Of a DNA stretch of 34,123 nt, positions 10,550-11,461 are shown piece after piece. A model generated the notes under the pieces. It did no database searches, was not told the origin of the DNA, and saw only the letters and a list, made by a program, of their open reading frames with translations. The first letter of the stretch is position 1; each line of letters starts with the position of its first letter. Position numbers and translations under genes: made by a program. This DNA is from Escherichia coli (lineage in GTDB: Bacteria > Pseudomonadota > Gammaproteobacteria > Enterobacterales > Enterobacteriaceae), in assembly GCF_003334385.1 (NCBI RefSeq), contig NZ_QOWN01000047.1; one strand, given 5' to 3'.

Positions 10550-11461
10550 ATGGATGACTGTGGTGCGGTTTTGCATAATATTGAAACTAAATGGCTTTAT
10601 GATTTTCTGACCCTGGAAAAATGCCGCAATTTTTCCCAGGCAGCAGTCAGTCGCAACGTCTCGCAACCGGCATTCAGCCGCCGCATCCGTGCGCTGGAAC
10701 AGGCGATTGGCGTTGAATTGTTTAACCGCCAGGTGACGCCGCTGCAACTCTCGGAACAAGGTAAAATATTCCATTCGCAGATCCGCCATCTGTTGCAACA
10801 GTTAGAGAGCAACCTTGCAGAACTCCGTGGTGGCAGCGATTACGCGCAACGCAAAATTAAAATAGCCGCTGCACACTCTCTTTCCCTCGGGCTGTTACCG
10901 TCCATTATCAGCCAGATGCCGCCGCTCTTTACCTGGGCAATTGAAGCTATTGATGTCGATGAAGCGGTCGATAAACTGCGTGAAGGGCAAAGTGACTGTA
11001 TTTTTTCCTTTCACGACGAAGATTTGCTGGAAGCGCCGTTTGACCACATTCGCTTATTTGAATCTCAATTGTTCCCTGTCTGCGCCAGTGACGAACACGG
11101 AGAAGCACTTTTTAACCTCGCGCAGCCACACTTTCCGTTACTGAATTACAGCCGCAACTCCTACATGGGGCGATTGATTAATCGCACCCTGACGCGCCAC
11201 AGTGAGTTAAGTTTCAGCACCTTTTTTGTCTCTTCGATGAGCGAGCTTTTAAAGCAGGTTGCCCTCGACGGCTGTGGGATTGCCTGGCTGCCGGAGTACG
11301 CCATCCAACAAGAAATTCGCAGCGGGCAGCTCGTTGTACTGAATCGGGACGAACTGGTGATCCCGATTCAGGCCTATGCATACCGAATGAATACCCGCAT
11401 GAATCCAGTTGCCGAACGCTTCTGGCGTGAACTGCGCGAGCTGGAGATTGTACTTAGCTGA
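10550..11461 (+). CDS. hypT: LysR-family transcriptional regulator HypT (YjiE)
   Basis: 303-aa ORF with N-terminal LysR-type HTH; 3-prime end overlaps iraD convergently by 8 bp. Confidence 0.8.

Follow-up and report, generated by a model that had tools for sequence, protein, structure and literature searches.

The convergent genes hypT and iraD of the Escherichia coli DNA analyzed here, a stretch of 34,123 bp that we refer to as the window, share 8 bp at their 3′ ends. This overlap is real and is already known, being present in the reference annotation, and we consider it probable that it represents a selectively neutral junction of the GimA-negative type, at which iraD has lost its native stop codon and runs on into the neighboring gene.

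The shared segment, TTAGCTGA, was identified by direct reading of the sequence and from the list of open reading frames (Table 1), and an 8-bp overlap of the two coding regions at 11454-11461, as described in the sequence-only reading of this DNA, is borne out. The accompanying description of the two stop codons as overlapping each other does not hold, as the stops are 2 nt apart and each sits within the final sense codons of the opposite gene (plus strand, 11440-11470: ...GAG ATT GTA CTT AGC TGA CAT TCT CGA G...). Strain SCU-104, which matches the first 25 kb of the window at 100% identity, carries hypT and iraD at exactly the same coordinates in the RefSeq annotation of its corresponding 34,123-bp stretch, and the identical 8-bp overlap is present in the RefSeq entry for K-12 MG1655 (iraD 4556993..4557385, hypT 4557378..4558289). 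It is likewise annotated in O157:H7 SS52, strain 20 and CM148361, and an Ottawa isolate and a wastewater strain are among the genomes annotated with it. The length of the overlap was 8 bp in every GimA-negative E. coli genome inspected (n = 5). Upstream of hypT, the inverted repeat in the iadA-hypT spacer coincides with the best promoter-like site, TTGTCA-16-TAGAAT, and is likely to be either the predicted hypT promoter region or a stem-loop at the 3′ end of iadA.

Table 1. Features at and around the hypT/iraD junction (window coordinates).
Feature	Position	Strand	Description	Basis
Gene order			iadA-hypT-iraD-yjiC-uxuR	Annotation
iadA-hypT spacer	10490..10537	+	12-bp perfect inverted repeat (10491-10502 / 10526-10537)	
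hypT (yjiE/qseD) CDS	10550..11461	+	LysR-type hypochlorite-responsive regulator, 303 aa	ORF list, RefSeq SCU-104/K-12
Inverted repeat inside hypT	11339..11371	-	Perfect 11-bp repeat, CTGAATCGGGA-N11-TCCCGATTCAG; 83-115 nt past the iraD stop	
iraD (yjiD) CDS	11454..11846	-	130 aa, ATG at 11846	ORF list, annotation
iraD product	11454..11846	-	Anti-adaptor protecting RpoS from RssB/ClpXP	Pfam PF04965 GPW_gp25
iraD stop	11454..11456	-	TAA (reverse complement of these positions), preceded by AAT GTC AGC (N-V-S)	
Shared 8 bp	11454..11461		TTAGCTGA: iraD stop, two bases, hypT stop	Sequence
Coding content of the shared 8 bp	11454..11461		HypT L302 (part)-S303-stop; IraD V129 (part)-S130-stop	
IraD C-terminal tail	11457..11474	-	Codons for residues 125-130 (TLENVS), disordered, lineage-specific	
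hypT stop	11459..11461	+	TGA, preceded by GTA CTT AGC (V-L-S)	
CATT	11462..11465		4 nt of hypT 3′ flank, also found beside hypT in GimA-positive strains; supplies IraD codon N128 and part of V129	Junction sequences
hypT transcript past the stop	11462..11539	+	First 78 nt, antisense to the 3′ end of iraD, C-rich/G-poor	
idlP	11843..11926	-	Leader peptide of iraD with translational coupling to it; marks where the iraD unit has its regulated 5′ end	Annotation, PMC5574718

The site at which the two genes meet is a described variable locus. According to Homeier et al. (2010, PMC2878320), the GimA locus lies between yjiD (iraD) and yjiE (hypT) and occurs in three patterns: GimA-positive, a 342-bp remnant, and GimA-negative, as in K-12. 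The window junction is the GimA-negative pattern of this published locus (Homeier et al. 2010, PMC2878320; Huang et al. 2001), and GimA-derived sequence, whether the ptnI/pptE remnant or the full cluster, is absent between its iraD and hypT genes. GimA is a 20-kb metabolic/ibeA cluster, and in several other Escherichia, too, hypT and iraD are separated by it or by its remnant. A 1.7-kb query covering the locus found matches in 5,396 of 5,426 complete E. coli genomes, and junction states were scored with a 100-bp query across the window junction, together with queries for the remnant and GimA-positive junctions. The abutting state of the window was contiguous in 4,881 complete genomes, while in 513 the match ended at query position 54-58 (window 11461-11465), directly after the hypT stop. 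The junction with the remnant of approximately 0.4 kb was contiguous in 266 genomes and that with the 20-kb cluster in 247. Because these three counts sum to 5,394, the three states cover every genome matched by the 100-bp query; approximately 90% of E. coli are thus GimA-negative and approximately 10% carry GimA or its remnant. In the GimA-positive strain DE17, nhaC/ibeA/dhaR...dhaKL-ptsP come after hypT, and iraD lies beyond them, approximately 20.3 kb away. Strains 400625 and JNE112863 have a 372-bp 'PEP-binding protein' pseudogene between hypT and iraD, in a gap of 425 bp. CFT073 and 536 are further natural carriers of the remnant, and UTI89 and RS218 of GimA.

The 3′ end of iraD differs among these states. 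In GimA-positive and remnant strains the gene encodes 127 aa ending in ...W-H-R-T-M-P-Q-stop, lies about 50-425 bp from its neighbor, and is followed, eleven nt past its stop, by a strong stem-loop (AACGCGATACG-loop-CGTATCGCGTT) that is common to the convergent ptsP. A scan of the GimA-positive junctions found no T-tract after this stem-loop, which fails the terminator pattern; we refer to the structures of GimA-positive and remnant strains as stem-loops rather than terminators because the T-tracts are missing. Both the native iraD stop and the stem-loop are missing in the window and in K-12. Instead, the window DNA that encodes N-V-S-stop of IraD, 11454-11465 (TTAGCTGACATT, plus strand), is the same as the hypT flank in a GimA-positive strain (...GTGCTTAGCTGACATT|ATTCTGCAG...), which places the GimA breakpoint between 11465 and 11466. 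Consistent with this position, the match to the window extends to 11465 (query position 58) in the GimA-positive strain, and it extends to 11461 in the remnant strains. The last three codons of IraD and its stop in the window are thus 'borrowed' from DNA on the hypT side.

We suggest that the GimA-negative junction arose by deletion. Such an event would have removed the native stop and the stem-loop of iraD, whose reading frame in the window runs on for three codons (N-V-S), over CATT and the final 8 nt of hypT, and halts at the first in-frame stop, which lies inside hypT. Deletions at this locus are documented: the remnant is the product of a deletion between two CTGCAGAA 8-mers (positions 900 and 20784 of locus L012) and therefore shows that microhomology deletions do happen there. 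The alternative polarity, in which an empty site with abutting, overlapping genes is ancestral, GimA was inserted later and the overlap is no deletion scar, seems unlikely to us, although it accounts for several observations. GimA-negative junctions are found on three deeply diverged iraD alleles (the K-12, E69 and E. whittamii types) with an identical breakpoint on the iraD side, in strain DE17 the 4 nt CATT flank GimA on each side, both iraD and GimA are missing next to hypT in Salmonella, and the G+C content of GimA is lower than that of the chromosome (PMC2878320). However, a 4-nt repeat is expected by chance, GimA adjoins iraD even in E. albertii, and Homeier et al. (PMC2878320) saw neither mobility genes, tRNA genes nor convincing direct repeats at the flanks of GimA, arguing for vertical inheritance and reductive evolution. 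Deletion, as proposed by Homeier et al., is favored over insertion because the GimA-negative junction of E. whittamii is nested among GimA-bearing alleles with 97% identity and because deletions at this locus are documented. Whichever the direction, the K-12 junction and the GimA-bearing junctions can be related only with one further 2-nt change (TA). Derivation of the K-12 junction from B2 sequence in a single step was considered and rejected on account of this extra change and because K-12-type iraD is approximately 20% diverged from all other alleles.

The junction varies further among other Escherichia. In E. whittamii the genes abut with a 1-nt difference in phase, such that the iraD frame takes in 21 bp of hypT and its product ends in ...IPGVSARFNL. 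The remnant junction of E. coli B2 strains recurs in Escherichia sp. E1V33, where the gap is 426 bp, and in the E. albertii type strain ptsP adjoins iraD, which carries the same stem-loop as GimA-positive and remnant iraD. In some E. albertii and in 'E. coli E69' hypT has been lost and iraD converges on iadA; E69 retains the last approximately 25 nt of hypT, including the iraD stop. At locus L007 hypT is degraded. Salmonella lacks iraD and GimA, and its hypT converges on an Asp/Glu-racemase gene across a 5-bp gap. Citrobacter proteins labeled 'IraD' were considered as a guide to the ancestral context and rejected, as they are true TssE subunits inside T6SS clusters. The alleles themselves are strongly divergent: B2-type iraD shares 97% identity with the alleles of E. 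whittamii and E1V33 and 87% with that of E. albertii, and the K-12-type allele, which the window carries, is approximately 80% identical to every other allele compared. The flanking hypT and uxuR genes are approximately 96% identical between E. coli types, and yjiC and ytiC (12110-13343) are missing from B2-type strains. The interval between the hypT stop and the uxuR stop is thus a replaceable, hypervariable segment that carries iraD and adjoins the core gene hypT, with the overlap as its left boundary.

The convergent arrangement without an intervening terminator, which the earlier reading had also pointed out, was confirmed. There is no spacer between the coding sequences that could hold a bidirectional terminator, and a consensus scan found no intrinsic-terminator-like site on either strand in 10300-12600. 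Searches of Rfam with the whole window at the gathering threshold, and with 10400-12600 at E<=1, returned no known RNA family, the sole hit being a chance snoRNA-like match. Because both spacer and intrinsic terminator are missing, each mRNA must run on as antisense RNA into the gene opposite. A single structure stands out on the iraD transcript, the inverted repeat at 11339-11371, which forms a U-less hairpin (45-nt MFE -19.4 kcal/mol, within the top 0.7% of 45-nt windows in the window). Steady-state 3′ ends of Rho-dependent mRNAs are marked by U-less stem-loops (Dar & Sorek 2018, PMC6061677), and this hairpin could be a candidate stem-loop that defines or protects the 3′ end of iraD mRNA. 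It is kept across Escherichia regardless of GimA state, in GimA-positive and remnant strains too, and is absent in Salmonella. Its conservation in every GimA state means that it did not arise to serve the iraD 3′ end, and the idea that it evolved as an iraD terminator after GimA loss is rejected. Past the hypT stop, the RNA from 11462-11539 is weakly rut-like (C 0.33, G 0.21; its C/G ratio of 1.62 is just over the window's 90th percentile of 1.55), and local folding found no strong hairpin downstream of it. Downstream of iraD the C>G bias is weak, with C/G of about 1.0-1.25, and rut-like composition is therefore no decisive guide at this junction. A plausible course of events is that Rho-dependent termination occurs inside the partner gene once ribosomes have left at the stop codons, and that iraD mRNA would then be trimmed back to the stem-loop at 11339-11371.

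HypT responds to HOCl, and the proposed connection of both genes with oxidative or damage stress is broadly true. Expression of iraD is induced by DNA damage and in stationary phase via ppGpp-dependent P1/P2 (PMC5574718). A functional convergent excludon, in which the missing terminator is exploited to couple iraD to hypT and so to link the RpoS-stabilizing and HOCl responses, can be envisaged, but we regard it as an unlikely explanation of the overlap. By this route, polymerases or antisense RNA from iraD, when induced by ppGpp, DNA damage or stationary phase, could lower hypT by head-on collision and/or by duplex cleavage through RNase III, and the reverse effect is possible as well. In its favor, transcript overlap is unavoidable at this junction, which is present in 90% of E. 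coli genomes; transcripts of convergent operons overlap in 276 of 370 E. coli pairs, by a mean of 286 nt (PMC4161252); excludons are favored by short intergenic distance (PMC12288877); and E. coli provides a precedent in arfA/mscL (PMC10070815). On the other side, the Term-seq and Rho tables of Adams et al. (PMC7815308) have no entry, whether 3′ end or Rho region, at 4,556,800-4,557,999, the ten supplementary tables of p19 dsRNA capture name neither iraD nor hypT, so that no dsRNA cluster is reported for either, and the 165 convergent excludons listed for MG1655 do not include iraD/hypT. On INTERFERENCE, these published 3′-end, Rho, dsRNA and excludon tables thus hold no support for the iraD/hypT pair, and co-mentions of iraD with hypT or yjiE in the literature are confined to incidental gene lists, with nothing on the overlap. 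Low expression may explain each of the three table results, which are weak evidence because low expression hides such signals; wild-type iraD mRNA is too scarce for Northern detection, and the work on iraD addresses the 5′ leader only (PMC5574718). The arrangement is also inconstant: in approximately 10% of E. coli and in several Escherichia species the two genes stand apart, hypT is missing, or the overlap is 21 bp long. Because the tables are negative and the arrangement is not conserved, designed regulatory coupling is unlikely. Any effect of collision or dsRNA would probably be small, given the low expression of iraD and hypT. As Drazic et al. are said to have reported in 2013, HypT is activated post-translationally by methionine oxidation, and because activation takes this form, modest changes in hypT mRNA may not matter.

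It is also conceivable, though we hold it to be quite improbable, that loss of the GimA spacer together with the iraD stop and stem-loop created a new coupling in cis in approximately 90% of E. coli, with iraD, once induced, being transcribed antisense across the 3′ portion of hypT and HypT being damped. If this were true, GimA-positive and remnant lineages, which are mostly B2 ExPEC, would have stayed insulated, and the junction would represent a deletion-driven, lineage-specific rewiring of two stress responses. Finally, the suggestion that the overlap is an annotation artefact, with one protein ending earlier or one reading frame going unexpressed, is scarcely credible: it draws on the general caveat that C-termini are seldom verified, with no specific support found, but both stop codons are unambiguous and are preceded by no in-frame stop, PDB 6OD1 chain B matches IraD residues 17-130 including the tail ...ENVS, a construct that was expressed and crystallized, and HypT orthologues are 302-303 aa long, in agreement with the 303 aa of the window.

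The hypT/iraD pair is thus a genuine pair of convergent, overlapping protein-coding sequences, both of which reach their annotated stops, and the ends of both proteins are variable. In the crystal structure of IraD with RssB, IraD is ordered and modeled only at residues 18-124 (PMC6546054), and its endings differ by allele: ...HRTMPQ-stop, ...HSSIPGVSARFNL-stop or ...RSATLENVS-stop. HypT has solved relatives in the PDB (5YDW and others, close homologues) and orthologues in Salmonella and Citrobacter with 81-82% identity, and its final approximately six residues vary in each genus examined (...ELEIVLS, ...ELEIEPG, ...GLQAAL, ...NLHAVP, ...QQHAAT and others). The VLS and EPG tails both occur within E. 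coli, and the TAA that terminates iraD is present only on hypT sequence of the VLS type (CTTAGC vs CCTGGC). As the tails read from the shared codons are disordered in IraD and hypervariable in HypT, nothing opposes the overlap, and nothing in these sequences suggests selection on the overlap itself. Other Escherichia lineages have a different overlap or none, and the shared codons fall in unconstrained tails, which argues that the overlap is probably incidental rather than a designed regulatory coupling. As a counterpoint to neutrality, the invariance of the 8 bp in five GimA-negative E. coli and the presence of the abutting junction in 90% of genomes are readable as conservation; recent common descent predicts them equally.

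Short convergent overlaps are, moreover, not rare. Four 50-kb blocks of the K-12 annotation (200 kb) were sampled for a base rate and contained 31 convergent CDS pairs. Three of the 31 overlap (yfeH/ypeB by 4 bp, pptA/yddH by 4 bp and ydcD/yncO by 86 bp) and another three are 0-2 bp apart (cueR/ybbJ, ydcY/ydcZ and ypdC/fryA), so that roughly 1 in 10 convergent pairs overlap and roughly 1 in 5 leave no room for a terminator. Within the window itself, yjiJ/kptA are separated by a 12-bp gap. Reading iraD into antisense hypT in the two alternative frames gives an overlap of 88 or 213 bp; the realized overlap is 8 bp because the frame that iraD uses is the one with the nearest stop. The hypT/iraD overlap needs no special significance.

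A clean deletion of iraD removes the last residues and the stop of HypT, a clean deletion of hypT does likewise to IraD, and knock-outs of the 3′ end or C-terminal tags of either gene disturb the opposite gene. Phenotypes ascribed to yjiE/qseD/hypT or iraD mutants therefore need to be checked for an effect on the overlapping neighbor. In addition, E. coli lineages differ in IraD, which has 130 aa and no stem-loop in one case and 127 aa with a stem-loop in the other, and what is known of IraD regulation from K-12 may not transfer to B2 ExPEC because the C-termini and 3′ contexts differ and the K-12-type allele is approximately 20% diverged. As a discovery the overlap carries little weight, since it is in the standard annotation and its site is a described variable locus, yet the junction is a clean natural example of a convergent overlap that forms when, after an indel, a reading frame runs on to the next stop.

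Several known systems provide a context for this junction. Like arfA/mscL (PMC10070815) and the excludons (PMC12288877, PMC7154746), iraD and hypT are convergent stress-related genes with complementary 3′ ends, and their spacing likewise varies by taxon, overlapping states included. The two cases differ in that regulation, RNase III dependence and phenotypes are established experimentally for arfA/mscL, whereas the iraD/hypT pair is known from DNA and is absent from the MG1655 excludome. A second likeness is to the Rho class of Dar & Sorek (PMC6061677), as the pair has no intrinsic terminator, a stable U-less hairpin lies approximately 85-115 nt past the iraD stop, and C-rich RNA is found just past the hypT stop. 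Here, in contrast to that class, the hairpin lies inside the coding sequence of hypT and is older than the junction, the resemblance being one of sequence.

The closest general parallel is with convergent tail-to-tail overlaps that arise by 3′ extension (Kingsford et al. 2007, Fukuda et al. 2003, via PMC3887535). Both involve a short 3′-3′ overlap, a native stop that was lost so that the frame extends as far as the first in-frame stop of the neighbor, and overlapped codons that fall in unconstrained tails, with no essential difference between them; in hypT/iraD, the stop disappeared in connection with a large indel or segment replacement and not with a point mutation. As to the site itself, the junction occupies the same chromosomal position as the GimA-negative pattern of Homeier et al. 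(2010, PMC2878320), and our counts of 4,881, 266 and 247 genomes reproduce the three patterns that the available passages of that paper describe. Relative to those passages, what is new is that the GimA-negative pattern makes the iraD and hypT coding sequences overlap, that the IraD C-terminus and the stem-loop differ by pattern, that the remnant arose between CTGCAGAA repeats, and that K-12-type iraD is an allele with approximately 20% divergence that is linked to yjiC. Our analysis thus adds to the published description of the locus that the annotated overlap is the GimA-negative junction, that hypT-side DNA encodes the final three residues of IraD, whose own stop and stem-loop have been lost, and that the segment carrying iraD is strongly dimorphic within E. 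coli.

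The iraD segment of this K-12-type stretch differs sharply from its counterpart in E. coli strains that carry the GimA cluster or its remnant (B2-type; L010 and L012). While iraD and its leader share ~78–82% identity between the two types, the flanking genes hypT and uxuR share ~96%, and the B2-type strains lack yjiC and ytiC. Moreover, the K-12-type iraD shows ~80% identity to each of the other Escherichia alleles, a distance greater than that separating E. albertii from the B2-type. This pattern suggests either that an allele was replaced long ago or that evolution has been unusually fast.

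The 342/372-bp GimA 'remnant' is the product of a 19.9-kb deletion between two 8-mers (see table). Because Escherichia sp. E1V33 carries a remnant junction identical to that of E. coli, the remnant is either old or has passed between lineages.

Features of the iraD/hypT region and compared loci
Feature	Locus	Position	Remarks
Segment compared	window	11483-13489	iraD, idlP, ytiD, ytiC, yjiC; vs L010 and L012
8-mers bounding deletion	L012	900 and 20784	CTGCAGAA
Remnant junction site	L010	4060-4075
Remnant junction site	L008
Perfect 12-bp inverted repeat	window	10490-10537	TGTCAGCCGCCC ... GGGCGGCTGACA, 23-nt spacer; between iadA stop and hypT start
Window-end content	window	1-174, 31400-34123	IS1 fragment; truncated dienelactone hydrolase; truncated sialate O-acetylesterase; HNH endonuclease; fragments of phosphorothioate-dependent restriction enzyme and of DUF4942/DUF957 genes

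The gene hypT has been deleted in 'E. coli E69' (L004, 3360-3470) and in two E. albertii loci (L016 and L017), leaving iraD convergent with iadA. In E69, hypT survives as no more than its final ~25 nt, fused to the iadA-hypT spacer, and this leftover still supplies the iraD stop codon. The iadA-hypT spacer of the window contains an inverted repeat that overlaps the best sigma-70-like site of the region (TTGTCA-16-TAGAAT), and which could be a 3′ stem-loop of iadA, an operator, or both. A second tight convergent pair, yjiJ (+) and kptA (-), is separated by a gap of only 12 bp (window 7342-7355), so that a terminator cannot fit between the genes.

As annotated in SCU-104, an identical strain, both ends of the window consist of decayed or mobile DNA. 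In strain C9 (H1, NZ_CP010129.1), IS1 has inserted within this locus and breaks the best match to the 1.7-kb query into two pieces. A 605-bp contig deposited as Bacillus coahuilensis m4-4 (L003, NZ_ABFU01000118.1) matches the E. coli iraD/hypT junction at 97-100% identity and almost certainly represents E. coli contamination of that assembly.

Outside of Escherichia, IraD's closest relatives share 51-53% identity with it and are genuine TssE subunits encoded in intact T6SS clusters of Citrobacter (L013-L015). In Salmonella, an orphan Hcp gene is located two genes beyond hypT (L018, 4888-5418). IraD appears to be an orphan TssE that has been domesticated; its similarity to the Gp25/HsiF fold has already been recorded (PMC6546054).
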